This document shows, piece after piece, positions 1 to 57,900 of a stretch of 58,166 nucleotides of DNA. The stretch covers positions 1-58,166 of the IMG/VR virus record IMGVR_UViG_3300036944_001184, one strand, 5' to 3'. Position 1 is the first letter of the stretch; each line of letters opens with the position of its first letter. Source of the stretch: a virus. Taxonomy: Duplodnaviria > Caudoviricetes. The translations under genes were made by a program, and so were the position numbers. The notes beneath the pieces are model-generated. The model saw nothing but the letters and a program-made list of their open reading frames with translations. It was not told the DNA's origin and searched no databases.

Positions 1-3000
1 AGGAATCACGATTCAGTATGACGAATCAGCAAGGGGGATGATGGTCGCCCGACCCAGTGCTCCTGATACGGTGTTCGTGAATCCGCAGCTGCTCGCCCGG
101 GCGATCGAAGGACTCAGCGAGTTCAACGCCCGTCGCTTTGTGCGCGCCGCAGTCAACCACGAGATCGCCCACCTTGCCGCGTTCAGCGCCTTGTCGGACT
201 CCGACATCGACTACATCGCCCTGAACCTGTCGCCAAGCAAGCTGTGGGAAGTGGCTGACCGCTACTACTCGGCGAGCATCCCGGACGCAGCCACCCGGTT
301 CGAAAGAATCCGGGAAGACCGCGCCGCTGGAAAGCTCAGCATCCGCGAGCTGGCCGACGAGTTCGTCCGCATGGAAATCGAGAAGGCCCGCAGCGGCTTC
401 ATCAGCGAAAGCGACTACTCCTTCTATCGCCGCAACCCCAGCATGCTTTCCCGCATGCTGCGTGCACTCGAAGCGTTCATCGCCAAGCTGACCACCCGCA
501 TCCGCGGCATCGAAGACAGCGAGATCGCCGCCTCGGTTCAGCGCGCCACGCGAGTTTACAACCAGCTGGTGTCGCCTGCCGATCCGACTGGTTTCGAGGA
601 GCAGCTCAACGTGCTCCGCCGTGACGATGTCACCGGACGTTTCAGCCTGCCTGTGAAGAACTACGGCAACAACTCCTACGACGTGGGAGGCAAGTTCAGC
701 CGCCTGTTCAAGGGCGATCTGCCAAGCGCCATCAGGGCGCTGGTCGGAACCCGCGACAACCAACTGCGTCTGGTAGCCCGCATCTCCGAACAGTTCAACA
801 ACCAGATGCAGGCGTTCCGCAAGGCAGGAGTCGTCAACGACGAGAACCTGACGCTGGTTCGCAACGCAATGGGCGACACCGGACTGGTGATCTCCAAGGC
901 GCGCATGGCCCAGATCGAAGCGGTGCTGGATGGTGAGATCACGAACATCGAGAAGACGTTCGAGGATTCCGCGAAGACTGAATCGGACAAACTGATTCAT
1001 GATAAGGGTGTGGAAGAAGCAGCCGCGCGTCATAAGGATCGCGTGATCAAGGAGTATCAGCTGGTCGCCGACAAGGCCCGCGCCGCAGCTGCCGAGGCGA
1101 AAGCCAAGCTGCCACCGAAGGTGGTCAAGGTGATCGAGGACGCACGCGCCGCGATCGACAAGGCTTCCGGAAAGATCGCCACCAACCCGTTCACGCCGGA
1201 TGACATCCGCATCGTGATCGACGCCAACATGGGGATCTACCTGACCCGCTCCTACTACGCCTTCACGCAGACTGGATGGACCAAGCTGCTGAAGTCCGCC
1301 GGTATCGCGCAGGTCGGCAACTCCACGATCGACTTCCAGAAGATCCGCGACAACGCCTTGAAGCATTACACCAACAAGGCCAGCAAGAAACTGGAAGCCG
1401 AGATCAAGAAGGCGCATCCGGAGTTCTCGCCAGCAGAGGTCAAGGCTGCGGTCCTGCGTGACACACCCGCCCGGGCTCAGGTCATGTTCGATGAGTTCGT
1501 CGCCAGCATGGACAAGAATGCAGCGAACCTCGCCACTGGGCAAATCCTCGCAGTGGATGTCGAGAAGGCGCTGTTCGAGGAAGGCTCCACGGAACCAGTG
1601 GTGCGCACTGCTCGGGCCAATGAGCTACGTCAGGAGCTTAGCCGCTTCGCCGAGAAGAAGGAGCTGCCCGAGTGGCTGCGTCAGGCCCTCGGCGAAATCA
1701 CCGACCCGGTTGAAGCAGCTACCCGTTCGCTGATCAGCGTCTCCAAGCTCGCCGCCAATCAGGACCTGCTGACAAGCACGCTTGAAGCTGGGCTTGACGG
1801 AGGCTGGATCACCAAGGACCCGATCGTCGCCGACCAGAAGGGCTACGTCAAACTCTCTGGGGCGAACCCGGCGTACGACGCGCCGCTCGACGGAGCCTAC
1901 GGCCCACCCGAGTTCAAGAAAGCGTTCGATACGATCTTCTCGAAGAGCGCCCCTGAGCTGGAAGACACTGCCGATCAGGCGGTGCGGAACGGTATCAAGG
2001 TCCTGCGTGCAACCGCAGGCGGCGCAATGGCCGCGAAGACCCTGCTGTCGGTCGGCTTCTACTCGCGTAACGCAGTGTCCGACTTCGCCTTCTTCGCCCC
2101 ACTGCAAGGCGTGCTGCTGAACCCGGCCAACGTCAAGCGTTGGTTCCAGTCGAAGGGTGCGGCATTCGCCAAGAGCCCCGGCGAGCATGAGGCTTACATC
2201 CGTGAGCTGATCGAACTGGGCGTGCTTGGCGACGACTCCGGAACACAGGCGCTCCGCGATCAGATCGCAGGATACGCCACGGACGCGGAAGCCACACTCA
2301 ACAAGGTGGAGCGCAGCGCGCTTGCTGCACAGGGCGAAGCCTACTGGAAAAAAGCAGGCGGAGTTCCGGCCAAGATCCTGTCTCTTGGGGCAGACCTGAA
2401 CAACACGCTGTCATCCAACCTCCGCATCGGCATGTTCGAGAACGAGCTTGCAGTTCTGCGCGAAGCCTACAAGGGCGATGAGGCTTGGACGGAGGCACGC
2501 CTGAAAAAGGAAGCCGCCGCGAAAGTCCTGCGCACCACGCAGACTCACTCGCAGGTGTTCCCGGTGGTTACCAGCTTCACCAAGTCCGGTCTCGGTTCCC
2601 TGATCGCGCCGTTCGCCCGCTTCAAGGCGGAGGTCGCCCGCATCATGATCGAGACAGTCAAGCTCGCCAGCGAGGAACGCGCCAGCGACAACGAGGTCAT
2701 CCGCAAGCGGGGCAACCAGCGCCTCCGGGGCTATCTAACCACGCTCACCCTGATGCCACTTACCGTGGCAGGCGTGGTCAGTCTAGCGTTCGCCTTCGCT
2801 TTCGGGGACGACGACGATGTGGCGGAAAACAGCATCCTGAGTTACTTCCTGCCGCGCAACGGCGAGGAGCTTCGCCGTGATCAGGCCCTGCGCGCCGGTC
2901 TTGCCGACTGGCAAAAGGGCAACACGGTCTACTTCACGCAGGTGGGTGACAAGGTCCGCTCGCTGGACATGACCTTCATCAACCCGTTCGCGCTCTACAC

Positions 3001-3799
3001 CGACCCGATCATGCGGTCATATGAACTGATCCGCACCGGCAAGGAAGAGGAGATGCCGAAGGTGTTCTCGAAATGGGTGTCCGGTCAGCTGGTTGGTGAC
3101 CAGATCGCGATTGGTGCGGCGATGGAAGCGTTCAACAACAAGGACGAGAAGGGCAACCCGATCACCACGGAGGACACTCCATTCCTTGAGGCGTTGACCA
3201 CCCGCACCACTTACGCGCTGAGCCAAGGCTACAAGCCCCCGGTAGCCAGCTTCGTGCAGAACTTGGTGTCGGGCGAGAAGGGTTCCCGCAAGCCGGTGAC
3301 CGAAGACGACAAGGCGAGCAACCGCAGCGAGATCCTGCTTGGAGAATTGCTCGGCGTTCGCCCCCGCGTTGACGAGGTCAGCACCTTCTACAACCGGGCG
3401 ATCCGTAGCGCGGCGCTGACCTACTCGCAGTCCCGCCGGGCAACCGGAATCCTGAAGTCCCGCTCGCCGCTTGACGAGGATCAGATCACCGATGCAATTC
3501 AGAAAGCCAACCGCGCGCGGGTCTCCGCGTTCGGCACCGCCGCTGAACTGATGAAGGAGTTCGAGAACATGGAGATGACCCGGGGCCAGCTGATCAGCGC
3601 CGGAACAGACGCCGGGTTCTCCAAGGACCGGTTGAACAAGGCACTCGCCAACAGGACTGATCGCTGGACTCCGTCCCGCGACGACCTGAAGGAAGTCTAT
3701 GACGCGGGCCAAAAGGCGGACGGCAACGGCGCGGGTCGCCTGAAGCGGGTAGTGGCGGAATCGCTGAAGTACCCGGCAGTCCAAGTGCTGAATCCGTGA
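1..3799 (+). CDS. C-terminal part of giant internal virion/ejection protein with an HExxH metallopeptidase-like motif; continues from the ORF at 54910 across the window junction
   Basis: Frame open from base 2 to TGA 3799; motif AVNHEIAHLAAF; Ala/Lys/Glu-rich helical composition; last gene of a virion-protein block, followed by a terminator. Confidence 0.75.
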   Translation, partial: GITIQYDESARGMMVARPSAPDTVFVNPQLLARAIEGLSEFNARRFVRAAVNHEIAHLAAFSALSDSDIDYIALNLSPSKLWEVADRYYSASIPDAATRFERIREDRAAGKLSIRELADEFVRMEIEKARSGFISESDYSFYRRNPSMLSRMLRALEAFIAKLTTRIRGIEDSEIAASVQRATRVYNQLVSPADPTGFEEQLNVLRRDDVTGRFSLPVKNYGNNSYDVGGKFSRLFKGDLPSAIRALVGTRDNQLRLVARISEQFNNQMQAFRKAGVVNDENLTLVRNAMGDTGLVISKARMAQIEAVLDGEITNIEKTFEDSAKTESDKLIHDKGVEEAAARHKDRVIKEYQLVADKARAAAAEAKAKLPPKVVKVIEDARAAIDKASGKIATNPFTPDDIRIVIDANMGIYLTRSYYAFTQTGWTKLLKSAGIAQVGNSTIDFQKIRDNALKHYTNKASKKLEAEIKKAHPEFSPAEVKAAVLRDTPARAQVMFDEFVASMDKNAANLATGQILAVDVEKALFEEGSTEPVVRTARANELRQELSRFAEKKELPEWLRQALGEITDPVEAATRSLISVSKLAANQDLLTSTLEAGLDGGWITKDPIVADQKGYVKLSGANPAYDAPLDGAYGPPEFKKAFDTIFSKSAPELEDTADQAVRNGIKVLRATAGGAMAAKTLLSVGFYSRNAVSDFAFFAPLQGVLLNPANVKRWFQSKGAAFAKSPGEHEAYIRELIELGVLGDDSGTQALRDQIAGYATDAEATLNKVERSALAAQGEAYWKKAGGVPAKILSLGADLNNTLSSNLRIGMFENELAVLREAYKGDEAWTEARLKKEAAAKVLRTTQTHSQVFPVVTSFTKSGLGSLIAPFARFKAEVARIMIETVKLASEERASDNEVIRKRGNQRLRGYLTTLTLMPLTVAGVVSLAFAFAFGDDDDVAENSILSYFLPRNGEELRRDQALRAGLADWQKGNTVYFTQVGDKVRSLDMTFINPFALYTDPIMRSYELIRTGKEEEMPKVFSKWVSGQLVGDQIAIGAAMEAFNNKDEKGNPITTEDTPFLEALTTRTTYALSQGYKPPVASFVQNLVSGEKGSRKPVTEDDKASNRSEILLGELLGVRPRVDEVSTFYNRAIRSAALTYSQSRRATGILKSRSPLDEDQITDAIQKANRARVSAFGTAAELMKEFENMEMTRGQLISAGTDAGFSKDRLNKALANRTDRWTPSRDDLKEVYDAGQKADGNGAGRLKRVVAESLKYPAVQVLNP

Positions 3800-5689: not shown

Positions 5690-5961
5690 GGCTTGTATCG
5701 TCTCTTCAGTTCCTTCACCACGGCTGCTCCGGTTCCCGTAAGTCGGTAAACCGCAGAGCCGTCGCGAAGCCAGTTTGTTTTGGTCAACAGCCCGTCCGCC
5801 TCGGCCCGCTTCAATGCCGACTTGGCGAAGCGAACCGGGACATCGAGCATCGGGGCAGCCTCTTTCGAGGACACCCCATCCACCTCCGCCGCGACCAGCA
5901 CGGCGAAGGTGGAACAACGTCTAGCACCAAGCGTGGCAAGTGCAAGTAGAAACTGTATCAT
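5686..5961 (-). CDS. Winged-helix (MarR-like) DNA-binding protein
   Basis: SKEAAPMLDV...KSALKRAEADGLL...YRLTGTG wHTH pattern. Confidence 0.7.
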   Translation of the reverse strand: MIQFLLALATLGARRCSTFAVLVAAEVDGVSSKEAAPMLDVPVRFAKSALKRAEADGLLTKTNWLRDGSAVYRLTGTGAAVVKELKRRYKP

Positions 5962-7979
5962 ACAGTGGTCTTCCTGCGCGCGTCACTGATGAACTCCTTG
6001 GCGACCAAGAAGTCGAACAGCACCGGGTAAGTCTTGCGCGACTTGGACACGAAGTCCAAGAACGTAGCGGCGTTACCGATGCTGGTCAGGCTGGTGGTTG
6101 CTGGCCGGGTGAAGGCCAGCACCGCCTCGACGAACTCGATGTTGCGGACAAACCCGCCCGGGTCCAGCGTGCCCCGGAAGATCCGGAACTCGATGGTGTT
6201 CGAGCCGGAGGTGTTGACCGCTTCGTATCGGTCGCCGTACTGCGACTTGCCGCTGGTGAGGCGCTTGTCTTGGAACACCGCATAGCGGGAACCCTTGCGA
6301 CCGGCAACCGAGCTGACGATGCGGGACATGTCAGGCGAGTTGACGGTCACCAGAATCCGCCCGATCCACAGCGCACTGAGCGGCTTGCGGCTAACGTGGA
6401 TGTGCATGCCGCAGTAACCGTTGCTCCAGCTGGACATGTGGCGCGTAACCTCCGGGTCGTTGAGCGCACTGGTCCAGATGCGCTTGTGGACAGCAGGCGA
6501 ATCCGGGCGGGTGACCACCTCGAATCCTCCGCACTCGATGCTACCGTCGTGCTTGAAGACTCCGTACTTGGCGAAGTCATCCTTGTCCGACAGCGCGTCA
6601 GCCATGACCCGGGCGCAATCGTCCGTGTCGTAGCCCTTGTCAGTGCCCACCTCCAGTTCGATGCCGAACTTGAGGGCGACGTCCTCCTCGGGCTTCATGC
6701 CAGTAGCGGTGTCGTTCGAGTAGTTGCGGATGCGGGTGCGCGAGCTTCCCGAGCAGCGATGACACTCGCCGTTCTCGACAAGGTGGTTGAGATACCAGTA
6801 GCCGCACTCGCTACAGTAAGTCGCCACTTCATCCAGCTCATGCGCGCGTATCCAAGAATACTCGTGCCCGGTTCGTGAATAGTAGCCGCTTCGGATCTGC
6901 ATGGCCCGGTGCCTCGGGGCACGGTCACCACTCAATGTCGTGACAGCCAGCCCGGTTAAGCTCCACTCCCCTTCCACCAGCTCGTAGGTTGGGTTGTTGG
7001 TTGGCGGCTCCAGAAGGTACTCGTACGGGCTAGACCCATCGGTATGCCAGATGGGAGTAAGTTCGGAAACCGGGTGCCACTTGCCACCATCCACCATGGC
7101 CCGATCCCGGCGACTGCGCACGAACTTCCCAGCGTGAGGCCCGCCAGTAATCGCGAACCCATCACCACGCTTCCCGAAGCTGCCGTCAATGAACTGGATC
7201 AGATCAGCGTGCCCTTCGGGATACCACGTTCCTGATACGGGGACCGCCTTGTCGCGGCGCAAGTACTTCCCTTCCGCGTGACACCACACTGCATCCTCAG
7301 CAGGAACAAGGAAGCGACCTACCTTGACGCAGATAGCTCCATCCTTGCGCGTGGTTCGTGGTAAGCCCGTCATGAGCGCGGGGCTCATGTCGGTGCGCAG
7401 CTCCACGCCCAGTTCGAGAAGCTCCTCGCTGCGGTTTACCACGAGGGAGTTGCGGTCTGCGCTCAGCACGCAAAGCTCCAGCCGCTTGCTGTAGTCCTCG
7501 AACCAGTAGATGGTGCTTCCGTTTGGCAGTACCGTGTTGTCCGCCGAGGAGAGACGCTCCCCGGTGATGCGGTTGAACAAGCCCTTCTCCGGGATCTTGA
7601 GGGCGGTGATGCCCAGCTTGTCAGCGTAGGCCCAGTCGGAGTAGCCTGCGTAGCAGGCACCTGACGGCAGGGGCGAGGTGACTCGGACAAGCCCCTCGCT
7701 CAAGTCGCGGATGGTGTATTCCCCAACCCGTGATCCGATGGATACTGGTTGGCCTTCGTAGGTGTACAGGTATTTCATTTTTGATGCAGTTGGTTGTGTT
7801 GTGTAGTTGTACCAGTTGAGGTGGTCGTTGAGTTGGACTGGCGGGATCTCCGCCCACCCGTCAGGGTTGGTAGCCCCACAGCTCCTTTGTATAGACCGCA
7901 TTCGTCCGTAGAACCCGTCAAGTTGCGCTTGACTAATGTAAGCTAATGGCTCATAAGTACTAGGAGGTTCTTCGGGCAT
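5958..7979 (-). CDS. Amidoligase (COOH-NH2 ligase family) paralog A with long N-terminal extension and Cys-rich finger; alternative start at 7778 (MKYLYTY)
   Basis: KFGIELEV, HDGS, GGFEVVTRP, CGMHIHV, RYEAVN, TIEFRIFRGT motifs; CSEC...CHRC before the ligase domain. Confidence 0.85.
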   Translation of the reverse strand: MPEEPPSTYEPLAYISQAQLDGFYGRMRSIQRSCGATNPDGWAEIPPVQLNDHLNWYNYTTQPTASKMKYLYTYEGQPVSIGSRVGEYTIRDLSEGLVRVTSPLPSGACYAGYSDWAYADKLGITALKIPEKGLFNRITGERLSSADNTVLPNGSTIYWFEDYSKRLELCVLSADRNSLVVNRSEELLELGVELRTDMSPALMTGLPRTTRKDGAICVKVGRFLVPAEDAVWCHAEGKYLRRDKAVPVSGTWYPEGHADLIQFIDGSFGKRGDGFAITGGPHAGKFVRSRRDRAMVDGGKWHPVSELTPIWHTDGSSPYEYLLEPPTNNPTYELVEGEWSLTGLAVTTLSGDRAPRHRAMQIRSGYYSRTGHEYSWIRAHELDEVATYCSECGYWYLNHLVENGECHRCSGSSRTRIRNYSNDTATGMKPEEDVALKFGIELEVGTDKGYDTDDCARVMADALSDKDDFAKYGVFKHDGSIECGGFEVVTRPDSPAVHKRIWTSALNDPEVTRHMSSWSNGYCGMHIHVSRKPLSALWIGRILVTVNSPDMSRIVSSVAGRKGSRYAVFQDKRLTSGKSQYGDRYEAVNTSGSNTIEFRIFRGTLDPGGFVRNIEFVEAVLAFTRPATTSLTSIGNAATFLDFVSKSRKTYPVLFDFLVAKEFISDARRKTTV

Positions 7980-7980
7980 C

Positions 7981-8238
7981 TCAGTTGCAGTGGTGGTTGG
8001 TGAATGTGTCAAGGTCATCCAGCATTGAGCCATCGTCCCCGAGCATGGTGGTCATGGCGAGGTTGATGGACGATGCCTTGTTGCTGTCGTGCGCCGCTTC
8101 GAACGAGGTGGTCTTCCCGAAGGGGAAAGACCACACAAGGGCGCGGTGCCCGGCTTGTGACTCGGTGAGTGAGAGTCGCAGGGACTCGCGCTTATCTGGC
8201 GTGGTGACGACAATCGCGTCTAGTGTTTCGTATTTCAT
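7981..8238 (-). CDS. Hypothetical protein (MKYETLDA...)
   Basis: Coupled ORF in operon. Confidence 0.6.
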   Translation of the reverse strand: MKYETLDAIVVTTPDKRESLRLSLTESQAGHRALVWSFPFGKTTSFEAAHDSNKASSINLAMTTMLGDDGSMLDDLDTFTNHHCN

Positions 8239-8504
8239 GGTTGTTGTGGAGTATCGGTGTTGGTGATCTTGCAAATGAGGATCTGAACTTGGTTGTCTTT
8301 CAGGTTCACTCCGAAGATTCGTTTCATCACGCAGCGGAAAAACGACGTATCCGGTGCGAGGCTGGCGACGTGGCTGCTGATGAACTTGTCCGCGATTTCT
8401 CGCGTGATGAGCCCCTCGTTGACCATCGCAAGCGTGGTGTTATGGAGCGTTCGGGTCATGAGGTCAGCGATCTCGTCGCTGCCGTTGATGGATATAATGT
8501 TCAT
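8235..8504 (-). CDS. Hypothetical protein
   Basis: 89-aa ORF, ATGA-coupled. Confidence 0.6.
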   Translation of the reverse strand: MNIISINGSDEIADLMTRTLHNTTLAMVNEGLITREIADKFISSHVASLAPDTSFFRCVMKRIFGVNLKDNQVQILICKITNTDTPQQP

Positions 8505-8701
8505 GGTTGTTGTTTGGTAATGGTCCAGCCCTTGCCCTCGATCGCCTTGCCGGTGCGCCGCTCCGTCGCCTCGCGACCATCGACCGCGTTGTGGTCGTAG
8601 GTCACGGGGGGTTCGGAGGAGGACAGCTCTGGTTGGCAGAAGCAGTCAGGGGATGGGGTGTGTGGTTTGAGGTCGTTCAGTGGGATGATGTGGTAGGTCA
8701 T
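8501..8701 (-). CDS. Small His/Cys protein (MTYHIIPLNDLKPH...CFCQP...HNAVDGRE)
   Basis: Coupled start; H-x5-CxC...HN possible metal-binding pattern. Confidence 0.65.
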   Translation of the reverse strand: MTYHIIPLNDLKPHTPSPDCFCQPELSSSEPPVTYDHNAVDGREATERRTGKAIEGKGWTITKQQP

Positions 8702-8820
8702 GCTCTTGTTGCAATGATGATGGCGAGGGCAACCGCCGCCGGGAGCAGCGTCCTGATGTCCCCGGTGACGAGGAGCAGCAGGACACTGAGGACAAGCCAA
8801 GTGTATAGGATAAGTCGCAT
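8698..8820 (-). CDS. Small membrane protein (40 aa, two hydrophobic stretches)
   Basis: MRLILYTWLVLSVLLLLVTGDIRTLLPAAVALAIIIATRA translated by hand; fills the gap exactly. Confidence 0.6.
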   Translation of the reverse strand: MRLILYTWLVLSVLLLLVTGDIRTLLPAAVALAIIIATRA

Positions 8821-8824
8821 GGTA

Positions 8825-9841
8825 TCAGACGTGGGTAATGCGCTTCAGGGTTTCATGGTTCGGGATGGAGACGCCGTAGATGTTCTGCAACTCGTCGCGC
8901 AGGACCTCCGCCCCGTCCTTGCGGGAGGCGAGCATCTCCAGATCGTAGAGTGTGTAGCCACACTCGCCCAGCTCGGTGACCATCCACTCGTTCTCCTCGC
9001 CGATCTCGGCGATGATCATGGCGTATGAATCCTCCTCGCTGAGTCCGTCGTCCATTGCCCAGCCACCTTCGGAGACCGTCTCGGAGCGGGCAGAGAGATA
9101 GGCTTCCCAATCCTCTTCATCCATGTCGTCGATCTCCTTGTCGGACAAGGTCTCCTTGACCGGAACGGCGATGACCGGATGATAGGTGGTGGTGCCATCC
9201 GCATTCTTGGTGGTGGTCCAAGCCTGCTTGGGCTTGGCCTTGGCGCTGTACGAGTAGCCGCGCGGGTCGGCACAACGCCAGTCCTCGTAGCTGCTGTTGG
9301 ACCACCAGACTCCGTTCTTCCAGTGACCATTCGCCTCGCCCCAGATGGCGAAGTCGCCGTCCGCATTGAGGAACACCAGCTTGTTGCTGCGACCCACCAT
9401 CATGTCGCCCATCGTAATGAACTCGGGGCGCATGAAGTACTTGTGATCGTTGAGCCAGAACGGGTGCAGGATGTCGCGGCAGATGTGCCACGTATCGCTG
9501 AACGACGGGTTGTCATTGGCTGCCTCGAAGAACATGCCGTTGTGGATCACGGCAGCAGGGCAGCCGCCACCGTCACCGAAGGTACGCAGATCGAACGGAT
9601 GGCAGTTGTCCTGATTGACCTTGCCATGCGTGGAGATGCGGAAGTGGATGATCGCCGCGTACTCGCCGAAGGGTTCGAGCGCCTTCTTGAAATGCTCGAA
9701 CTTGAAGAAGCCCTTCTCGACGATGAGCTGACCGTCAACCGCGACAGCGAAGCCAGCGCCATCCGGGTTGTAGTTCATTCCATTTTCGAGGGCGTTCCAA
9801 TCAGGGGCGATACCGGCTGGTTTGTATAGTGCAAGACACAT
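8825..9841 (-). CDS. Class II (Ntn) glutamine amidotransferase with acidic C-terminal extension
   Basis: N-terminal Met-Cys (MCLALYKP), NPDGAG, HFRISTHG, NCHPF, HNG, SDT motifs. Confidence 0.9.
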   Translation of the reverse strand: MCLALYKPAGIAPDWNALENGMNYNPDGAGFAVAVDGQLIVEKGFFKFEHFKKALEPFGEYAAIIHFRISTHGKVNQDNCHPFDLRTFGDGGGCPAAVIHNGMFFEAANDNPSFSDTWHICRDILHPFWLNDHKYFMRPEFITMGDMMVGRSNKLVFLNADGDFAIWGEANGHWKNGVWWSNSSYEDWRCADPRGYSYSAKAKPKQAWTTTKNADGTTTYHPVIAVPVKETLSDKEIDDMDEEDWEAYLSARSETVSEGGWAMDDGLSEEDSYAMIIAEIGEENEWMVTELGECGYTLYDLEMLASRKDGAEVLRDELQNIYGVSIPNHETLKRITHV

Positions 9842-9925
9842 AATGGTAGTTTGTTTTTGTAGTAGTGGTTTGGGTGTTTTCTGCTGCACCCGCAGCGTCT
9901 TATCCGTTTTTCCGAATAGCGGGGA

Positions 9926-11437
9926 TTACTTGGTGTAGAAGTCCTTCTTCTTGAGGAAGGCAAACAACTCCTTGTAATCCTTGCGCCGCTTGGATACGAA
10001 GTCAAGGAACTTCTCGGGCTCCGCAACATCGCGGTTGCTGGTGGTCGCGGGACTGGTGAAGGCCAGCACCGCTTCGACGAACTCGATGTACCGGATAAAC
10101 GATTCACGAATCAGGGTTCCACGGAACAACCGGAACTCGATCGTCTCGCGGGGCGAGTTGTTGACTGCGTCGTACTTGCGCTCGACTCCGGTCTTCTTGC
10201 CGTTGGTCAGCTTCTTGGTCCGGATCTCCGCGTAGTTGGTGTTGTACCGACCGGACACCTTGGCGACGATCGACCGCATGGAGGGCGAGTTGATCATGAC
10301 AAGGATGCGACCGATCCACAGCGCACTGAGCGGCTTGCGGCTGACGTGGATGTGGACGCCACAGTTGCCACTGTTCCAGCTGGTCAGGTTGCGGCGAACC
10401 CGCGGGTCACTGAGGAACTCCGAGAAGATCCGCTTGTGGACCTCGGGCGCATCGGGGCGGGTGACGATCTCGAAGCCGCCGTCGTTGAGCGAACCGTCCT
10501 CCTTGTAGACCACATACTGGTCAGGGAAGATGGACTCGCACAGCTCGACTCCGTTGTCCGCGTCCCGCCCCTCCACCTCAAGCTCGATGCCGAACTTGAG
10601 CGGCACGTTCTTCTCCGGGCGGAGGTTGGCTGCGGACTTGTCGCTGTAGGACTGGAGCCCGGATGGTGGCGACCAGCAGTTGGTGCAGTTGCCGTCCTCG
10701 GCGTAGTCGTCATTGCTGAACCGCTCGCCGCAGCAGTCGCAGATGAACGTCTCATCGTTGAGCCAGTCACGGCAGTACCAGTCGCCGCACCACTCCTCCA
10801 TCTCGTCGATGAAGTAAGCCTCGTTGGTGCCGTAGCAGTAGGCGACGATGTCATCGTCCGCCCAGCAGTCGTAGTTCTCCATGTAGGTGTAGCCGTCCTC
10901 CGGTTGCTCGGTCACCCATTCGCCACCGCTGCGGCGATCGTAGTAGTTGTAAACGAGGCGGAAGCAGTTGCTCTTCAGGTGGTTCTCTCCGTCAATTTCA
11001 ACAGTCATGGTCTTTGGGTAGTAGTTGGTTTCTTCGTCAAGGGTAACTTCAACAGCATCACTTTTCAGGATTCGTGATCCGTTAAGAGTGATTACTGATA
11101 GGGATTCGTGAACCCACTCGCCGCTTGTGAGGCGCATGTAGTCGCCCGGAATGTCAGAGTCAGGCACAGTAACCAAGCGCACGCTGGTCAAGTGGTCCCA
11201 GTTCCAACCACGGAATACTCTCTGGAAGCTTTCCGTAGTCTCTTCGTCGTACCCGGCGTGTCTCGCGCCTTCCAAGTCCACGAGCTGGACCCCGAAGTTT
11301 TCGATATCCGCCACGCGGACCTTGATGCGTTTGATTATACTGAGGGTCCGGAAGTCCATCTCGATGATGTCTCCCACTTGAACGCGCTTGCCAGTGTTGG
11401 TGTCAATCCATGCTTTCATATCAGTATGTTGTTTCAA
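9926..11437 (-). CDS. Amidoligase (COOH-NH2 ligase family) paralog B with acidic Cys-rich N-terminal region
   Basis: KFGIELEVE, EDGSL, GGFEIVTRP, CGVHIHV, KYDAVN, TIEFRLFRGT; CDCC...CTNC before the ligase domain. Confidence 0.85.
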   Translation of the reverse strand: MKQHTDMKAWIDTNTGKRVQVGDIIEMDFRTLSIIKRIKVRVADIENFGVQLVDLEGARHAGYDEETTESFQRVFRGWNWDHLTSVRLVTVPDSDIPGDYMRLTSGEWVHESLSVITLNGSRILKSDAVEVTLDEETNYYPKTMTVEIDGENHLKSNCFRLVYNYYDRRSGGEWVTEQPEDGYTYMENYDCWADDDIVAYCYGTNEAYFIDEMEEWCGDWYCRDWLNDETFICDCCGERFSNDDYAEDGNCTNCWSPPSGLQSYSDKSAANLRPEKNVPLKFGIELEVEGRDADNGVELCESIFPDQYVVYKEDGSLNDGGFEIVTRPDAPEVHKRIFSEFLSDPRVRRNLTSWNSGNCGVHIHVSRKPLSALWIGRILVMINSPSMRSIVAKVSGRYNTNYAEIRTKKLTNGKKTGVERKYDAVNNSPRETIEFRLFRGTLIRESFIRYIEFVEAVLAFTSPATTSNRDVAEPEKFLDFVSKRRKDYKELFAFLKKKDFYTK

Positions 11438-11445
11438 TTCAGGTA

Positions 11446-11628
11446 TCAGTTCCAGTCAGGGTGAATCTCTCCGCTCTCGGTGACGATCACGGATTGCTTT
11501 TCATGAAGCAGAATCTCCGCATCGGGAGACAGCTTCGGCATGCGGGGTTCGCTGACCCGGCGACCGGCTTGGTCACGGGCAGTGGTGGTGCCGTTGTCGG
11601 CGCGGGTGATGTGGATGAATGGTTTCAT
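11446..11628 (-). CDS. Small hypothetical protein
   Basis: 60-aa ORF directly downstream of a palindrome copy. Confidence 0.6.
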   Translation of the reverse strand: MKPFIHITRADNGTTTARDQAGRRVSEPRMPKLSPDAEILLHEKQSVIVTESGEIHPDWN

Positions 11629-11657
11629 TGTGTTGCTATTCGTTTTATCGGATAAGG

Positions 11658-13028
11658 TCAGGCATCGTTGTGGATCTCGCGATCCTCTGTGTGCATCCGG
11701 AAGCTCCGCGATGGGTCCATCACATCGCGGAACAACTTGTCCGCTGCTATCTCATCCTCCGCTTCGAGGAAGTAGTGCCGCACCTCGGTGATGCGGTACT
11801 TCAACTTCGGGGCAGGGGGTGGTGGGGCAGGCGAAGCCGGGGCGGGTGCTGGCATCGGGAATGCGGGGCGAGCCGCCCGGGGTGTTGCGGGCTGCTGGGC
11901 GCGCGCTTCCTGGTGAATGCGAGAGTGGACGCCTTGCCAGTAATCGTGTCCCTCGGGAGATGCGCCCCAGCTGAAGCCACGACCCAGCGCATCCGATGCG
12001 GAGGTCGCCGCGCCGTCACTTCGGTAGTGCCAGTTTCCGCTCTGGCTTGCCATGTGTCCAAGCGCCACCTCTGACTCAGGAATCGTGTGCAACCATTCCT
12101 CAATCGTGGTTGGCTGGATCTCTTCGACCAGATCGAAGTCGAAGTCACCCGGAGGATTCCACCTACCACGCTCGGTGAACGTCCTGTCCGTTCCGCCTAG
12201 GCGGGCTTCGAACTTGAAGAAGCTGTCCACCCGGGAGGGTGGGAGGCTGCGCATGTATCCGGTTGTCTGCCCATCCCGAGTCCGGTATCGGTAACCCGGT
12301 CTGACGCGGAACTCGCCGAGGGGTGCCGGGGTAGCGGGCGCAGCTGGCGAGGTGAGCAGGTTGCCGTGTTCGTCGCAGGGATCGCAAGACCTGTGAGCCA
12401 TGTCCGCCCGATTAAAACAGGAGCTTACCCAACGGGAACCGGGTTCCCCCCTCGTCTCACCGTTCCCCGATTCAGGCATCCGCCATACCCGATTCGTGAT
12501 TCGGGATCTGAAGTACAGGAACTCCGGTTGAGTGGTTACTGGTTCGGGTTCGGGAGCAGGAGCGAAAGCAGGTTCCGGGGTAAGCGATTCGTGATTCGTG
12601 GTGGGGAAGTACTCGGTCACATTGGCGAGCCCCCAAGTGGATTCGACCATGTCGTGGAGGTTCATGATCGACGCAACCCATGTGCGCCCACCGTCTTCAG
12701 ACCGCCAGCAATCGGTGTCATCAGTCGGGTCACCGGTTACCCGGGTGCGGTAGTGGTCTCCGTTCTGGTGTCTGAAATACCGGTGGGTAGGAGCGGGATC
12801 AGGTGTCGGTTCATTAGCAGGCTCTTCGCCCGGGATAGGTGGGAGTTCGCCAAGGGACACGGCCCGCCAGAAGTCATGCCCCTCAGGGGAATCCTCCCAA
12901 ACGAATCCGGTCACGAATGAATCACGCAGGCCGACGCATTCATCGACCAAGGTCCGGGCTGAGCTGTTGTCGATCGCCCGCTCCATGTAAGCGGCGGGCA
13001 GGGTTTCAAACCATTGTTGTCTCGTCAT
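11658..13028 (-). CDS. Mosaic multidomain protein with a duplicated GFxWxxSPEGHDxW domain and Pro-rich linkers
   Basis: GFVWEDSPEGHDFWRAV near N-term and GFSWGASPEGHDYWQGV near C-term; start MTRQQWFE. Confidence 0.75.
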   Translation of the reverse strand: MTRQQWFETLPAAYMERAIDNSSARTLVDECVGLRDSFVTGFVWEDSPEGHDFWRAVSLGELPPIPGEEPANEPTPDPAPTHRYFRHQNGDHYRTRVTGDPTDDTDCWRSEDGGRTWVASIMNLHDMVESTWGLANVTEYFPTTNHESLTPEPAFAPAPEPEPVTTQPEFLYFRSRITNRVWRMPESGNGETRGEPGSRWVSSCFNRADMAHRSCDPCDEHGNLLTSPAAPATPAPLGEFRVRPGYRYRTRDGQTTGYMRSLPPSRVDSFFKFEARLGGTDRTFTERGRWNPPGDFDFDLVEEIQPTTIEEWLHTIPESEVALGHMASQSGNWHYRSDGAATSASDALGRGFSWGASPEGHDYWQGVHSRIHQEARAQQPATPRAARPAFPMPAPAPASPAPPPPAPKLKYRITEVRHYFLEAEDEIAADKLFRDVMDPSRSFRMHTEDREIHNDA

Positions 13029-13039
13029 TTTCGTAGGAG

Positions 13040-13270
13040 TTAGAGTTCGATGAGGGTGTGGCGGGATTCGACAGGCGAGCCGCAAGCGGTGCCGTCTTGG
13101 TTGTACCAAGTGTTGTTGTCGCCAAGGTAGGTGGTGATTCCACCGTAGCTGGACGAGGTGACGATGGTGACCTGCTCACCTTGACGGTTGCGATAGACGC
13201 GACCGAGGATGGGTGAGGCAGGGGAGGACTGGTCGAGTGTGACCAAGGCGAGTTGGATGTTGGTTTTCAT
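13040..13270 (-). CDS. Hypothetical protein (MKTNIQLAL...)
   Basis: ATG immediately follows a palindrome copy; GRVYRNRQGEQVTI resembles the GYRYRTRDGQTT segment of the 11658 gene. Confidence 0.65.
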   Translation of the reverse strand: MKTNIQLALVTLDQSSPASPILGRVYRNRQGEQVTIVTSSSYGGITTYLGDNNTWYNQDGTACGSPVESRHTLIEL

Positions 13271-13314
13271 ATTCGTTTTATCGGATAAGCCTGCTTCTGC
13301 CGCAGGCGAGGGCA

Positions 13315-14258: not shown

Positions 14259-14306
14259 GGTGAGAGGGAATCCCTTATCCGTTTTACCGGATAAGGGATA
14301 AGTGGT

Positions 14307-14471: not shown

Positions 14472-14518
14472 TTTGTTATTTGGTTTCGGGTTGGGCTTAT
14501 CCGTTTTACCGGGTAAGG

Positions 14519-15529: not shown

Positions 15530-15662
15530 TTGGATAAGGTGCCCCGCGTTTCTGCTGCTATGGGTGATGGCTTCGGTTTATGGGAGAGCTTATCCGTTTT
15601 ACCGGATAAGCGGAGAACGATTCAGGAATAAGGAAACCCTTATCCGTTTTACCGGATAAGGG

Positions 15663-15866
15663 TTATGCTGTCCAAGAATAGCGGCCACCGTTGAATCCGG
15701 TGCGGCGAATGCGGTCATTGCAAGGGTTGTCCGTGCATTCGCCCCGGTAATACCAGACCGTTTGGCCCAGACCGTTCGGAGTCTTGCCCTTGGTTACGTC
15801 ACGGGCGATGAACTCCTTGCCATAGTTGCGGACGACTTGGCCTTCTTTGAGTGTGCTTGATTTCAT
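15663..15866 (-). CDS. Small basic hypothetical protein
   Basis: 67-aa ORF bracketed by palindromes. Confidence 0.7.
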   Translation of the reverse strand: MKSSTLKEGQVVRNYGKEFIARDVTKGKTPNGLGQTVWYYRGECTDNPCNDRIRRTGFNGGRYSWTA

Positions 15867-15971
15867 GATTCGTGGTAAGTGATTCGTTATTCGTTTTAAC
15901 GGATAAGGGATTCGGGATAAGTGAAGCAGGGCTTACCCGATAAAACGGATAAGCCCTGCTATAGTTAATCC

Positions 15972-45705: not shown

Positions 45706-46137
45706 TTAAAGGGAACCAGCGCCCCAGCTGGTAGCGAAGTCTTCAAGTTTAAACACCGGCGGGTTGGGGTCAACGATGTCCACGAAACCAGAAGGCCCGC
45801 CAGCGTAAGTCTTCTTCGCGGCGGCGGCGATCCGCTCCTCCCTGAGCAACCCCTTCATGAGAATCGCATAGTTGACCAAGTCATCGCAAGCATCGTCCAC
45901 GGATTCCCCATCCACGGCGCAGACTCCGTTCTTGATGAAGGCGCGCACACGCTGGAGCTTGTCTGTAGAGCGTAGGATAATACCCATCACTGGGTGAACT
46001 CCGTAGGCTTCGGCAATCCGGAAGTTGGCAAAGGGGTCGCCGTCGCCTCCGGAGTAGTCCATGTTTTTCTGCCGCATGATCTCACGGCATCGGGTGGTGG
46101 TCTCTTCGTGGAGAGACAAGAGGTTGTCTAGGTTCAC
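45706..46137 (-). CDS. Nucleotide-modification-associated (DUF1599-like) helical protein
   Basis: KNMDYS...DPFANF...DKLQR...ESVDDACDDLVNYA. Confidence 0.7.
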   Translation of the reverse strand: MNLDNLLSLHEETTTRCREIMRQKNMDYSGGDGDPFANFRIAEAYGVHPVMGIILRSTDKLQRVRAFIKNGVCAVDGESVDDACDDLVNYAILMKGLLREERIAAAAKKTYAGGPSGFVDIVDPNPPVFKLEDFATSWGAGSL

Positions 46138-46497: not shown

Positions 46498-46962
46498 TCA
46501 GAGAGTCAGGGCGGCGATGATGGCTCGTTCAGATTCTTCCGTGAGCCCTGTGTAGCAGTCAGTTTGAACCAGCTTGTGCCTTAGGTGCGCCATGTCAGAC
46601 CCGTCGTCTACAATGCAGAACCTTTCCGGGGTGCCGTGCTCGTCCATCCATGCTTGGATCTCGTGACCCCGCTCCTTGGCGAGATACAGCCCATTCATCT
46701 TGCGGCGAACAAGATCAGGAGTGGAGTCAAGTATGGAGAGCCCTAGGATGTCAAAAGCCGCGAGGAGTTCTCTCATGGCAAATGGGTAGATCCGCCAAGT
46801 TGACGAAAGTACAATCCGGCAATCGGTTTGGTCCACAATGTTTACCAGCCGGGCGAGTAGGTCTTGCTCTAACCGCATGTGTGACTTGCCACAGCGGTTT
46901 AGAACGCCGTCCACGTCTAGGAATAGGACAGGGAATTTCACGAGCTTAGTAGGTCCAGCCAT
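46498..46962 (-). CDS. HAD-family phosphatase (RNA-repair-type HAD domain)
   Basis: LFLDVDGVLN, LSSTWR, RGHEIQAW, IVDD, GLT. Confidence 0.85.
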   Translation of the reverse strand: MAGPTKLVKFPVLFLDVDGVLNRCGKSHMRLEQDLLARLVNIVDQTDCRIVLSSTWRIYPFAMRELLAAFDILGLSILDSTPDLVRRKMNGLYLAKERGHEIQAWMDEHGTPERFCIVDDGSDMAHLRHKLVQTDCYTGLTEESERAIIAALTL

Positions 46963-47260
46963 TTTGAAGGATCTTTGCGAAGGAATCCAGACGGATGACC
47001 ACCACGGGAACCCGGCGATCCTCCATGAGGACTGCCGCATCTACGTGTTCGGTCAGCGCCGAGGTGATGATGGCGGGCAGCGCCTTGCGCGCCTTGACTT
47101 GGATGCGGCACCCGGCGGACTTCACGTCCACCTCTTCGTGCTCACCCATCGCCCTGCCGTTGGAGCCCCAAGCGCGCTTGGCGTCCAGTCCTTGGGATTC
47201 CAAGTACTTGACCAGCTTGACTTCAGCGCGATTGCCTTTTGCTTTTGAGGGGCTTGCCAT
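46946..47260 (-). CDS. Holliday junction resolvase (PD-(D/E)XK)
   Basis: SKAKGNRAEVKL...VDV...IQVK. Confidence 0.8.
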   Translation of the reverse strand: MASPSKAKGNRAEVKLVKYLESQGLDAKRAWGSNGRAMGEHEEVDVKSAGCRIQVKARKALPAIITSALTEHVDAAVLMEDRRVPVVVIRLDSFAKILQNGWTY

Positions 47261-51163: not shown

Positions 51164-51631
51164 ATGTCAGCGACACGCTCCAAGTTTCTCCCTTCGATCG
51201 GCGAAGACCTTCGCCTGTCCGACGTACTCGCGCCAACCGCATGCTTCCTCAGCTTCGCCTTCGGGTTTGCTGTGCGCTGCCTACTCGTGTTGACTCTGGT
51301 CGCGCTGCCTCTTTCCGCCGAGCCCGCCTCGAAAGTTTCCCCGAACAACACCTCCCACGCCTCTCCACGATGCGCACCAAGGGAGGTTCCTTTTCTCAGC
51401 AGACCTCCCGCGCCTCTGCCTGCAAGCGCACTTCGGGAGGTATTTCTACCCAAGTGCCCTGTTGTCGCCCCCGCCAAACCCCAAGGCCCGGTTGCGGAAC
51501 GCCCTCCCCGGGTTGACCGCAACTGGCCCGAGCGGCGAATGGCCTACTCGCCTGACCTCCGCGACCCGAACAAGTGGGTGCGCGAGCAGGAGAAGCAGGC
51601 ATGGCGATTCGTGGATTCCATTGGCAAATGA
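51164..51631 (+). CDS. Membrane-anchored Pro-rich hypothetical protein
   Basis: Hydrophobic N-terminal segments; TTGACC-18-GATAGT promoter 6 nt upstream of ATG. Confidence 0.5.
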   Translation: MSATRSKFLPSIGEDLRLSDVLAPTACFLSFAFGFAVRCLLVLTLVALPLSAEPASKVSPNNTSHASPRCAPREVPFLSRPPAPLPASALREVFLPKCPVVAPAKPQGPVAERPPRVDRNWPERRMAYSPDLRDPNKWVREQEKQAWRFVDSIGK

Positions 51632-54909: not shown

Positions 54910-57900
54910 ATGCCCGACACATACACCGACTGGTCCGCCAAGAATCCGATTGCCGACCCAGTCGAATCGCTTCGTAGTTTCAACGATTACAGCCGCGCCG
55001 AATACCTCCGCGCGGGCCAGCTCACACCAGAGCTGAACGAGGAGATGGACAACAATGCGTTTCAGTTCGCAGTAGAGAAAGGGCTGATCCCCGCTCCTGC
55101 CGACGAAGCCGCTCTTCAGGAATCCTTCAAGTCCTTCATCCTTCGCCCGCAGTCGGACAGCGTTCTCGCCCTCGCAGGCGACAAGCTCTCGGACGAGGGC
55201 AACAACGAAGGCGCACTCAAGGTCAAAGGCTACCTCGCCGCGAAGCGTCAGGCAGGCACCCCGATCATCACCGATCAGGAAGAATACGCAGCCCGCCTCG
55301 AATCCCTCCGCAAGGAAGCGGAGCCTTTCTTGGATGAGAACTCCCTGAACAACGCGAAGCGTTACGCAGTCACCACTGGCAAGGCGAAGTTCGCCACCGT
55401 GATCGAAGATGGTCGCTACCGTGTGGTCGCCGATCCGGCCCTCGGAGAACTGGACGACGCCACGATCGCCGCGTACTCCGCAGCCAACCCGGACCTGATC
55501 GACAGCCGCGCGCTGCCACAGATCCAGCAGTCCTTCCGCAAGATCCCCGGGCTTGACGTAACTCCTGCCCAGCTGGAGCGCAAAGGCGATATCGAGTCGC
55601 AGATGCTAGCACTTGCCAACCGCGACCCGGACGCAATGCGCGACTTGCAGTCCGCAATCAAAGGCTTCAAGTCGGACAACCGGACTACTGGTAAGACGGT
55701 TATTGATTCCGTTTTCGGGATTCCTGCTGCCGTGATCAAGGGAATCGGGGAAGGGATTCAGTTCGCCACGACCGGCGTTGCCCCGAAAGGTGATGGCGTG
55801 ATTCCTGATACCGTGGAAGCGGTTGCGGATCGCCTGTCCCGTTCCGAGCTTGGCCGGTTCGCCACCATGCCCGAGATCGCTGAGGCTGTCCGCGACTTCG
55901 CCACTACCAGCGGCGTAGACTCGGTTGAGTTCGACGAGAAAAATCCTGCTTCCGCAGCCCGCCGTCTTTCCACTGGGATGTACGCAATCCCGAAGCGTAT
56001 TCAGGTCAACAAGGATCTCTTCAACAAGACGCTCGAAGCCCTGCCTCTCTCCAAGGAGCAGAAAGCCCAGATGACCGAGAAGCGGGATGCCAGCCTCAAC
56101 GCATACGCCAAGGAGCTTATCCCGCAGCTGATCCAAGCAGACGGGAGCCTCGCCGACGTGTACCAGACGGCGCGGGACGCGGGCAAGTCAGACGGCGAGA
56201 TCATCGAGCAGATTGCCGCGAGCGGTAAGTACAACGGTGCGGCCAACCGCGCCGAAAGCCTCGGCCTCGCTGCTTTGCGGACGGTGACCGATTTGATTCC
56301 CGCCGCAGGGGCGCTGATGCCCTTTGGCTTCGGCAGCCAAGGAGTGAAGGATCTAGGCTTCAAGATCAGCCAAGACATCGGTGAAGAGCAGGCAGCCAAC
56401 GCGGCCCTTGCTGGTGTGTTCGGCAAGGACTTCGGGTGGGGCCAACAACTTGTCGAGCAGCTCCCGCAGCTCGCCGCAGACATCTTCGTATCCCGTGGCG
56501 CGGGTCGCGCTGCTGGAGCCGCAGGCCGGATCGCATCGACTGGTGGCAAGGTTGCGGCGCGTAGTCTTCTTGGCGTCGAAGCCGCCGAGGCCCTCGCCAA
56601 CTTCTCCAAGCGCACTGCTGGCCGCGCGGTATCTGTTGTCGGCAAGACCGTGGCAGACGACTTCGCCAAGGCGCTCAAGGCAGCTCCGAACGAAATCGGC
56701 TGGCTCACTTCCCAAGGAGCCCGCGAGTTCGGCGCTACCTACTCCAGCACCCGCAGTTCACTGGAAGCCCAGCGCGCCCCGGACGGCTCGAAAAAGTTCA
56801 CCCCTGAGCAGGTGGAGAACATGTCCACCGAAGCGGCGGCGCTCTCTGCGTTCTGGTCGAACGCGATCACGCTTGGCATGAACCGCATTGGCGGCGGCAA
56901 GCTGGCTGGTGTGGAAACCCTCGCCACGGGTCGCGGCGTCAGCATGAGCAAACTCAAGGGCTACTACGACGACGTAGTTGCCGGAGTCGAGAAGCTCGCC
57001 CCCGAGGTCCGCTCGCAGATCAGCCTTGCTGACTTCGACACCTTCGCCCGCGACGTGGTGAAGTCTGCCATGTCCCCCGCAAAAGGAGTGCTCTACGGAG
57101 CCCTTGGTGAAGGCGCGGAAGAGTTCATCCAGAATGTCGCTGGCGATGTGGTCGAGTCCGCAGTCACCGGCAAGAACTTTGACCTGACCGACAGCGCCCG
57201 CGCTGCGGCTCTCGCCGCGTCCTTTGGCTTCGCCCTCGGCGGCGGCAGCAAGGGTGTGGAACTTCTCGAACAAAGGTATCTCTCCGACCCAGCTTACAAG
57301 CAGGCTGAGTTCGAGGCAAGCTACCTGTCCCGCACGATCGACAACCTCAAGGCGAACGGCGCTCCGGCTACGGCGACCTTCCTTCAACGCCAGCTGGACC
57401 TCGCCCAGCAGAACAAGGAGACCATCCGCACCCGCCTCACGCAGTTCGCTGCGGACGAGGAAGCCGCTGCGCAGGCGCAAGCTGCTGCCGACGCGACGGC
57501 GGACACGCAGACCGCTGATCAGATCCGCCGTACCCGCGAGCTTCAGACCACCGCTGCCCGCCTCGACACCCTTATCACGAAAGTCGAATCAGGAATCCCG
57601 GAATCCGAACAGACGGATAGCCAGAAGGAAGTCCTCGCCCAGCTCCGGGCGCGTCGTTCCGGAATCGACGATCAGATCAAGCAGGTCGGGTCAGTAATTG
57701 TTTCTGGAGGAGCCCAAGCCGAAGCTTTGGGGCTGGGCGCTGGACGCCGGGTTTCTAGTGCTATCGAACCCGTGGCTACACTGGCCGCACCCCCACAGAA
57801 TCTTTCGCCCGTCGAAGGTGTACCAGTCGAAACCGCTGGACAATTTGAGTTCCCGTTCATGGCTCGCTGGAATGACCTCGGCGTTCGCCTTGGTGGTGCA

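Follow-up and report, generated by a model that had tools for sequence, protein, structure and literature searches.

A predicted phage amidoligase locus with a duplicated ligase gene around one class-II glutamine amidotransferase

The 58,166-bp virus record IMGVR_UViG_3300036944_001184 (completeness estimate 93%), analysed here over its whole length and called the window, carries a locus in which two predicted amidoligase genes, ligase A and ligase B, lie on either side of one gene for a class-II glutamine amidotransferase (GATase). This arrangement, read from the bare sequence in a preliminary description, was confirmed, with all three genes on the minus strand. The genes of the locus form an operon-like block that encodes a phage-specific module of two enzymes (Table 1). 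The module itself has already been predicted; what is new here is the anciently duplicated ligase around one GATase. A megablast search of 50,697 deposited phage genomes found no close relative of the window.

Viral, metagenome and genome collections yielded 160 loci with the ligase motifs, 111 of them distinct. A GATase homologue lies less than 300 nt from the ligase, on the same strand, in 101 of these 111 loci (ligase then GATase in 85, the reverse in 16), and in all 10 loci that lack an adjacent GATase the ligase is at a contig end. Such consistent adjacency argues for a functional link between ligases and GATase and, as no third gene family recurs beside the pair across lineages, for a two-gene, phage-specific module as the core. 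Only three loci came from bacterial species genomes, all of them metagenome-assembled, a count that reflects subfamily-specific search patterns and is not proof that bacteria are without the pair. Among deposited phages, 22 records have homologues of the ligase and the GATase side by side on the same strand, comprising the Methylophilales (OM43) phages MEP401 and MEP402, the Mycobacterium Marvin cluster (gp105/gp106) and Caudoviricetes sp. MW202733. These cultured relatives share 25-37% identity with the proteins described here and, in contrast to the window, carry a single ligase and no second copy. The ligase gene of the Marvin cluster (e.g., gp105) is labelled 'glutamine amidotransferase domain protein', as is the true GATase, gp106; the former label looks like annotation carry-over.

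Ligases A and B are close paralogues, as had been proposed, their Zn-ribbon and catalytic parts aligning over 284 aa with 51% identity (E 3e-86). A quick maximum-likelihood tree built from 45 catalytic domains contains a clade of 40 ligases (SH-aLRT 99) that consists of two clades, A (92) and B (95), and each of the six two-ligase contigs has one copy in either of the two, which points to an old, whole-gene duplication. A second ligase in the same ligase-GATase-small genes-ligase order is present in three related loci (L005, L006 and L086), while in L164 it lies further downstream. Two metagenome loci (L106 and L113) carry two complete ligase-GATase pairs in tandem on one phage contig, an independent way to double the module. 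Compared with L006 and L005, the ratio of non-synonymous to synonymous substitution rates (Ka/Ks) of the catalytic parts is 0.20-0.29 in both ligases; purifying selection acts on both, and neither has lost its catalytic motifs. Both paralogues accordingly look active, given invariant residues in the catalytic motifs and a catalytic Ka/Ks of ~0.2, in line with the preliminary reading.

The ligase family is a divergent branch of the Pfam family Amidoligase_2 (PF12224), and the window copies score just under its gathering score of 22 (ligase B, 19.6 bits; ligase A, 21.2-21.8 bits). The Pfam scan of the window covered open reading frames (ORFs) of at least 60 aa, 50 of them at E <= 0.001 and seven at E <= 0.1. 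PF12224 is matched at E <= 0.001 by 64 of 70 aligned relatives (best 1e-11), and several exceed the cut-off, e.g., L020 with 36.8 bits and P0129 with 37.9 bits. Both ligases also match phrog_16683 (1.7e-25 for B and 1.3e-20 for A); no similarity to PDB chains was found at the sequence level. The Cys-rich finger noted in the preliminary description is present as a CxxC-x13/14-CxxC motif within the A-B alignment. All 27 aligned ligases keep its four Cys, and a CxxC..CxxC ribbon immediately precedes the catalytic domain in 72 of 101 family ligases.

Structure prediction with AF2 gave a model of ligase A with a mean pLDDT of 93.2 and one of ligase B with a mean of 86.2, residues 1-100 of the latter being poorly predicted. 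Residues 278-503 of the ligase B model matched the YbdK-like structure 1tt4 (VIA Z 11.9, rmsd 4.1, 214 residues aligned), with further matches to glutamine synthetase (8pvg, Z 11.0), glutamate-cysteine ligase (Z 10.7), a 1-naphthylamine enzyme resembling glutamine synthetase (8wwu, Z 10.4), gamma-glutamyl-methylamide synthetase (9qur, Z 9.9) and, with Z of 9.2 and 9.0, Dop and PafA. Foldseek matches of ligase A were to glutamine synthetases and YbdK (E 3e-5 to 1e-4). As modelled, both catalytic domains have a glutamine-synthetase (GS)/YbdK-like fold, and with a catalytic domain of ~225-240 residues the protein is predicted to be a minimal GS/YbdK-fold, ATP-dependent carboxylate-amine ligase.

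The elements G, ExE, D.S, G.E, G.H.H, R, N and T.E.R are invariant in sets of 70 and 73 sequences, both paralogues among them, and correspond in ligase A to E374/E376, D411, S413, E420, H459/H461, R494, N522 and E530/R532. The acidic and His motifs presumably bind metal and ATP. When A-clade and B-clade catalytic domains were compared, 78 positions were conserved with the same residue and a single one was clade-specific: G378 in A versus E289 in B (20/20 sequences each), right after the ExE motif. So many shared positions against one difference suggest that ligases A and B perform the same chemistry; the two specificities envisaged in the preliminary description are doubtful at the level of chemistry.

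The product of the central gene is identified from its sequence as a stand-alone Cys1 class-II GATase of the N-terminal nucleophile (Ntn) type. Met-Cys stands at or near the start of the frame in 65 of 65 distinct homologues, and 14 residues are invariant in 33 sequences (Cys2, Asn25, Gly30, His66, Arg68, Thr71, Gly73, His81, Pro82, His100, Asn101, Asp116, Ser181 and Asn182), with Asn101-Gly102 invariant or nearly so. The GATase profile matches the GAT domain of GlmS (5.6e-9) and PurF (4e-7 to 1e-4), and more weakly the stand-alone class-II proteins 3mdn (2.5e-5) and 1te5 (7.7e-4). The TIGR01135 glmS model also matches the GAT region (1.1e-6), and the only Pfam match is a sub-threshold one to GATase_4 (15.5 bits, cut-off 23).

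The acidic C-terminal tail ascribed to this GATase is real: its 123 residues (216-338) include 30 D+E against 8 K+R, with an isoelectric point of 4.07. The core has a Ka/Ks of 0.17-0.35; values for the tail span 0.22-0.83, those among close relatives (0.22-0.32) indicating purifying selection. A C-terminal CxxC..CxxC ribbon occupies the position of the tail in 61 of 100 GATase homologues. In four related two-ligase phages the GATases are 672-832 aa long, with extensions that carry a GxRYxTRDG repeat; the acidic tail found no match in these four proteins by phmmer, and no homology between it and their linker is proposed. A search for longer proteins containing the GATase core returned four, all of them a GATase with TRDG-repeat extensions.

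The preliminary description had also assigned different N-terminal modules to the two ligases. This part did not hold, as profile-level homology and BLAST linkage indicate that the N-terminal regions are diverged copies of one architecture. Pairwise BLAST between the regions of A and B found nothing. The N-terminal regions of 33 relatives form one component by BLAST single linkage (E < 1e-3), and that of P0035 matches both ligase A (5e-10) and ligase B (1.9e-4). Profiles of 15 A-type and 16 B-type N-termini were aligned by hhalign over 212 columns spanning both (probability 99.0%, E 3e-18); with strict orthologues only (three and five sequences) the probability was 8.6%, with no alignment support. 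Hidden Markov models (HMMs) of one type also match proteins of the other type, for example at E 1e-13 and 1e-9 in L086. The stretch adjoining the Zn ribbon is built of strand-turn-strand (hairpin) units of ~13 residues. Ka/Ks of the N-terminal region is 0.30 in ligase A and 0.40-0.57 in ligase B, the less constrained of the two, and the B copy of the closest relative, L006, is ~140 N-terminal residues shorter.

Searches with the N-terminal regions matched little beyond the family itself. Pfam recognised no family in those of the window ligases and, in the long N-termini of ligases from 12 other lineages, only Amidoligase_2 and one borderline match (E 0.0099); ligase A residues 1-320 gave no usable match in the ESM Atlas. 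Against 1.84 billion representatives, the N-terminal-region profile gave 18 matches at E <= 0.001, of which at least 13 are ligases of the same family (by earlier identification or PF12224). The other five (P0126, P0128 and P0130-P0132) were discarded as a functional clue, only the ~13-residue hairpin repeats being matched. Three of them (P0128, P0130 and P0132) are unrelated proteins of ~460-510 aa that end in long arrays of a ~13-residue repeat (..DG.WY...DDAV..). The repeat common to these proteins and the ligase N-termini seems to be an undescribed module.

The reading given the most weight, at somewhat less than an even chance, is that ligase and GATase carry out a glutamine-dependent amidation, the two ligases sharing one chemistry and being differently aimed or regulated. 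Each ligase would use ATP and Mg2+ to activate a carboxylate to an acyl-phosphate. If all the GS-fold ligases characterised to date are a guide, the carboxylate would be a glutamate-type gamma-carboxyl. The Cys1 enzyme would hydrolyse glutamine and pass the ammonia to the ligase, a plausible role as ammonia donor. In net terms, glutamine would be used to amidate a carboxylate, carried by an envelope precursor or by a macromolecule of the host or the phage. The diverged N-terminal regions would aim or regulate the two ligases differently, and the ligases could be alternative partners of the single GATase or form a hetero-complex with it. A further-reaching form of this proposal, which appears rather unlikely, has two synthases that share one glutaminase amidating two host macromolecular targets chosen by the N-terminal arms. 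Glutamine-dependent amidotransferases would then include a new class, made up of a GS-fold synthase and an Ntn class-II subunit that supplies it, a combination without earlier biochemical description; a cell-wall precursor together with a protein or nucleic-acid-bound target may serve as examples.

Several points weigh against amidation as the reaction. That the substrates of such enzymes are uncharacterised, as stated in the preliminary description, was borne out, since the literature searched held no biochemical datum or experimental substrate for a phage Amidoligase_2/class-II GATase pair. No GS-fold ligase is known to take ammonia from a GATase partner, and the pairs EgtA/EgtC, PuuA/PuuD and GmaS with NMG synthase represent gamma-glutamyl make-and-break, not ammonia channelling. 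A gamma-glutamyl amide would fit the conserved Cys1, Arg, Asn-Gly and Asp residues no less well than glutamine, so that the glutamine site is compatible with both kinds of reaction and does not discriminate between them. One shared GATase is also not the sole solution, because the tandem loci L106 and L113 keep one GATase per ligase. The N-terminal regions gave no clue to a target in the Pfam searches of the window and of the 12 other lineages, or in the Atlas. As weak evidence, no ligase-GATase fusion was seen among longer proteins, and a query with the ligase domain gave no longer protein.

Gamma-glutamyl make-and-break is itself the main alternative, a serious one though rather unlikely, in which the ligase joins the gamma-carboxyl of glutamate to an amine (a small molecule or the amino group of a macromolecule) and the Cys1 Ntn amidohydrolase later removes or transfers the product, without an ammonia channel or a stable complex. 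It draws on the fold matches to 9qur (Z 9.9), 8wwu (Z 10.4) and glutamate-cysteine ligases, on the three precedents named above, each of which pairs a GS-fold ligase with a GATase-type enzyme, and on the invariant Arg68 and Asp116, which suit any gamma-glutamyl donor. The only Pfam match of the GATase is likewise to GATase_4, a family that holds EgtC/YafJ-type amidohydrolases. The GATase profile, however, performs better against GlmS and PurF than against 3mdn and 1te5, and a ligase with a hydrolase but without an intermediate enzyme would run a futile cycle, there being no third conserved gene. Tagging in the manner of Pup, by which PafA/Dop-like ligases would attach an operon-encoded small protein or peptide to host or phage proteins while the Ntn enzyme acts as a deamidase or peptidase, is improbable. 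The catalytic domain does superpose on Dop and PafA (Z 9.2 and 9.0), three conserved small proteins are encoded between the GATase and ligase A, and large, fast-evolving N-terminal regions suit the recognition of macromolecules. On the other hand, YbdK and glutamine synthetase outscore PafA and Dop, the four small ORFs end in A, P, P and N, not in Gln or Glu, and the small genes are confined to this sub-lineage while the distribution of the ligase-GATase pair extends across phages.

Two further explanations carry still less weight. A distinctly improbable one is DNA hypermodification, in which the pair would amidate or extend a carboxyl side chain on a modified thymidine or other base and the Zn ribbons would bind DNA. 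It is favoured by a co-association in viral contigs of amidoligase and amidotransferase genes, of unknown functions, with thymidine-hypermodification genes, as reported by Lee et al. 2021 (PMC8989533). In addition, 72 of 101 ligases carry a CxxC..CxxC ribbon, as do 61 of 100 GATases. Nevertheless, no thymidylate-synthase-like, 5-HMUDK, aGPT-Pplase or TET/JBP domain, for which Pfam models exist, was detected in the 57 scanned ORFs of this 93%-complete genome. The sole hint is a sub-threshold DUF1599 match (22.3 bits, cut-off 25) ~35 kb away, and most of the 111 loci are without a recurring partner gene. Highly improbable is the idea that one paralogue is a non-catalytic adaptor or is decaying, leaving a single working ligase. 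The poorly predicted first 100 residues of ligase B, the Ka/Ks of 0.40-0.57 in its N-terminal region and the loss of ~140 N-terminal residues from the L006 B copy would be explained in this way, but both copies have all invariant catalytic residues and a catalytic Ka/Ks of ~0.2, and both clades are kept in six of six two-ligase contigs.

Phage 'amidoligase' cassettes of the phiEco32/LUZ24/PaP3/tf/UFV-P2 type were reportedly predicted by Iyer, Abhiman, Burroughs and Aravind in 2009 (Mol Biosyst 5:1636). The LUZ24-like cassette consists of COOH-NH2_lig (PF14395), Amidoligase_2, GATase and ATP-grasp genes, according to PMC3890496. Cell-wall modification or superinfection exclusion, or secondary metabolites, are the roles proposed for it in PMC10580990, which also places the pair in over 30 marine viral genomes. 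The present locus resembles that cassette in that an Amidoligase_2-type GS-fold ligase and a class-II GATase are neighbours, surrounded by phage genes without an assigned role. It differs in the duplicated ligase around one GATase, the long N-termini of hairpin repeats and Zn ribbon on the ligases, and the acidic tail of the GATase; PF14395 and ATP-grasp, both part of the LUZ24 type, were not found by Pfam in the 57 window ORFs.

Among better-known enzymes, YbdK, glutamate-cysteine ligase and glutamine synthetase have the catalytic fold of the window ligases (Z 10.5-11.9) as well as their acidic and His motifs, but no counterpart in them was seen of the Zn ribbon, the N-terminal region or the obligatory GATase neighbour. 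The PafA/Dop-Pup system has a GS-like ligase fold in common with the locus (Z 9.0-9.2), while here there is no small protein ending in Gln or Glu, and the partner is an Ntn class-II GATase instead of a second, GS-like deamidase. MurT/GatD, in which an ATP-dependent ligase and a separate glutaminase amidate a glutamate carboxyl of a cell-wall precursor (PMC3267633), offers a similar division of labour with a Mur-ligase fold and a class-I GATase in place of the GS fold and class II seen here. Work on Klebsiella pneumoniae CfmP (PMC13419641) concerns an ATP-grasp enzyme and has no bearing on the locus.

Every gene of the locus is on the minus strand, and the order of transcription is the 483-aa gene, the 60-aa ORF, ligase B, the GATase, the 40-aa, 66-aa, 89-aa and 85-aa genes, a 202-nt spacer and ligase A. 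The GATase is separated by 84 nt from ligase B upstream and by 4 nt from the 40-aa ORF downstream, and three overlapping ATGA junctions connect the four genes from the 40-aa to the 85-aa ORF.

Table 1. Positions of the genes and other features of the amidoligase locus in the window.
Feature	Position	Strand	Remarks
Ligase B (B-type paralogue)	9926..11419	-	497 aa from M7; ORF extends to 11437
Zn ribbon of ligase B	10676..10741	-	C233, C236, C251, C254 (503-aa numbering)
Ligase B-GATase intergenic gap	9890..9925	-	contains degenerate palindrome copy CTTATCCG-N6-CGGATAAG
GATase, class-II (Ntn) type	8825..9841	-	338 aa from Met-Cys
GATase core	9197-9841	-	residues 1-215
GATase acidic tail	8828-9196	-	residues 216-338
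40-aa hydrophobic (membrane-type) protein	8698..8820	-	stop overlaps start of next gene (ATGA)
66-aa His/Cys protein	8501..8701	-	phrog_2864 family
89-aa ORF	8235..8504	-	seen in this phage only
85-aa small protein	7981..8238	-	conserved in relatives
Non-coding spacer, 202 nt	7779..7980	-	precedes ligase A
Ligase A (A-type paralogue)	5958..7778	-	606 aa
Ligase A parts		-	N-terminal all-beta residues 1-320; Zn ribbon C322/C325/C339/C342 (6753-6815); GS-fold catalytic domain ~367 to 606
60-aa ORF	11446..11628	-	directly upstream of ligase B
483-aa protein	11658..13109	-	upstream; possible accessory part

Several gene starts were revised. Ligase A stands as a gene but with 606 aa, not the 691 first given. 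Its start is placed at 7778 since all its relatives, and the database protein, begin at MK[YH][LI]YTYEG, and since the 85 codons upstream show no codon-position bias, a GC content at third codon positions (GC3) of 0.51 compared with 0.72-0.81 in neighbouring genes, and a Ka/Ks of 0.62. The GATase gene was likewise retained, its start being corrected to Met17-Cys (9841). Ligase B probably starts at M7 (11419), a nearly invariant residue and the start that yields the 497 aa of the database protein.

All four small ORFs announced for the locus were found, including the hydrophobic one (40 aa) and the His/Cys one, which matches phrog_2864. The latter is 66 aa long and not 99, a length equal to that of the phrog_2864 profile (66 positions), which matched residues 32-81 of the 99-aa ORF (2.6e-13). 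This gene is conserved in L005, L006 and L086 with a Ka/Ks of 0.11-0.20. The 40-aa gene is conserved in L005 (65% identity) and L006 (77.5%), its Ka/Ks being uninformative owing to its short length, and the 85-aa protein is 97.6% identical in L006, 89% in L005 and 40% in L086 (Ka/Ks 0.05-0.09). For the 89-aa ORF, tblastn found no counterpart in 14 related loci, and searches of Pfam, PHROG and NCBIfam gave no match; its GC3 of 0.72 suggests that it is coding. The four small ORFs end in ...ATRA, ...KQQP, ...PQQP and ...HHCN. The ...QQP ending shared by two of them was rejected as a tag motif, being a by-product of the common ...CAACAACCATGA context at the start of the next gene.

The spacer ahead of ligase A shows codon-position GC bias in no frame and is partially conserved with L006, and L086 is without a corresponding gap. 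It was rejected as a structured RNA, with a fold z-score of -1.71 that is not significant and only close relatives alignable; an Rfam search of the locus found nothing.

The 60-aa ORF is readable in the L006 sequence, is preceded by a palindrome motif at 11647-11656 and may be in the same transcription unit as ligase B. The 483-aa protein contains, at residues ~262-339, a unit of ~60-75 residues (GxRYxTRDGxxT...F.F.A.LG...GRW) in common with the GATase extensions of P0122-P0124. It matches P0124 by BLASTP (E 2e-6 and 1e-4) and three of the four long GATases by phmmer (6.5e-9 to 7.1e-6, E-values for a four-sequence set). As it carries one copy of the GxRYxTRDG unit of the long GATases, the gene may belong to the system; it adjoins the ligase in L006 and L005. 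Two other segments of this protein, of the EGHD[FY]W type, find matches in phrog_16354, phrog_25460 and phrog_10949.

The palindrome of ~22 nt, CTTATCCG-N6-CGGATAAG, is repeated in the intergenic gaps of the leftward, minus-strand gene block (9895-9920, 11640-11660, 13275-13295, 14270-14305, 14490-14510, 15585-15665 and 15895-15955). The sequence AACGGATAAG, with at most one mismatch, has 16 matches where 2.15 are expected, 13 of them between 9.9 and 16 kb. Perfect copies of the palindrome fold into hairpins of -15 to -31 kcal/mol, and the element could be an operator, promoter or terminator of the leftward block.

Elsewhere in the window, the ORF with the DUF1599 ('nucleotide modification associated domain 1') match adjoins one for a HAD_SAK_2 protein (4.3e-29) in the replication block (45706-46137 and 46498-47040, both minus strand). 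An Rfam match to the abiF RNA (RF03085) lies at 51351-51387 on the plus strand (47.2 bits, gathering score 37, E 1.3e-5). Very large plus-strand ORFs without a family match are present at both ends of the record, one of 1253 aa (38-3799) and one of at least 1085 aa with an open 3' end (54910-58164); if the genome is circularly permuted, these could be neighbours or one giant gene.

With 111 distinct loci, the ligase-GATase pair is among the most widespread phage enzyme modules without a known substrate. The locus alone does not reveal its function, and what is gained is a sharper definition of the module. This phage lineage amounts to a natural experiment, in which near-identical catalytic pockets and diverged N-terminal arms are combined with a single GATase, and swaps or deletions of the arms could reveal what selects the target. 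Genetics is feasible in the cultured relatives, with an OM43 strain as host of MEP401 and MEP402 and Mycobacterium smegmatis mc2 155 as host of the Marvin cluster. If the proposal of two-target amidation is true, it would be a means by which the phage rewires its host or blunts host defence.

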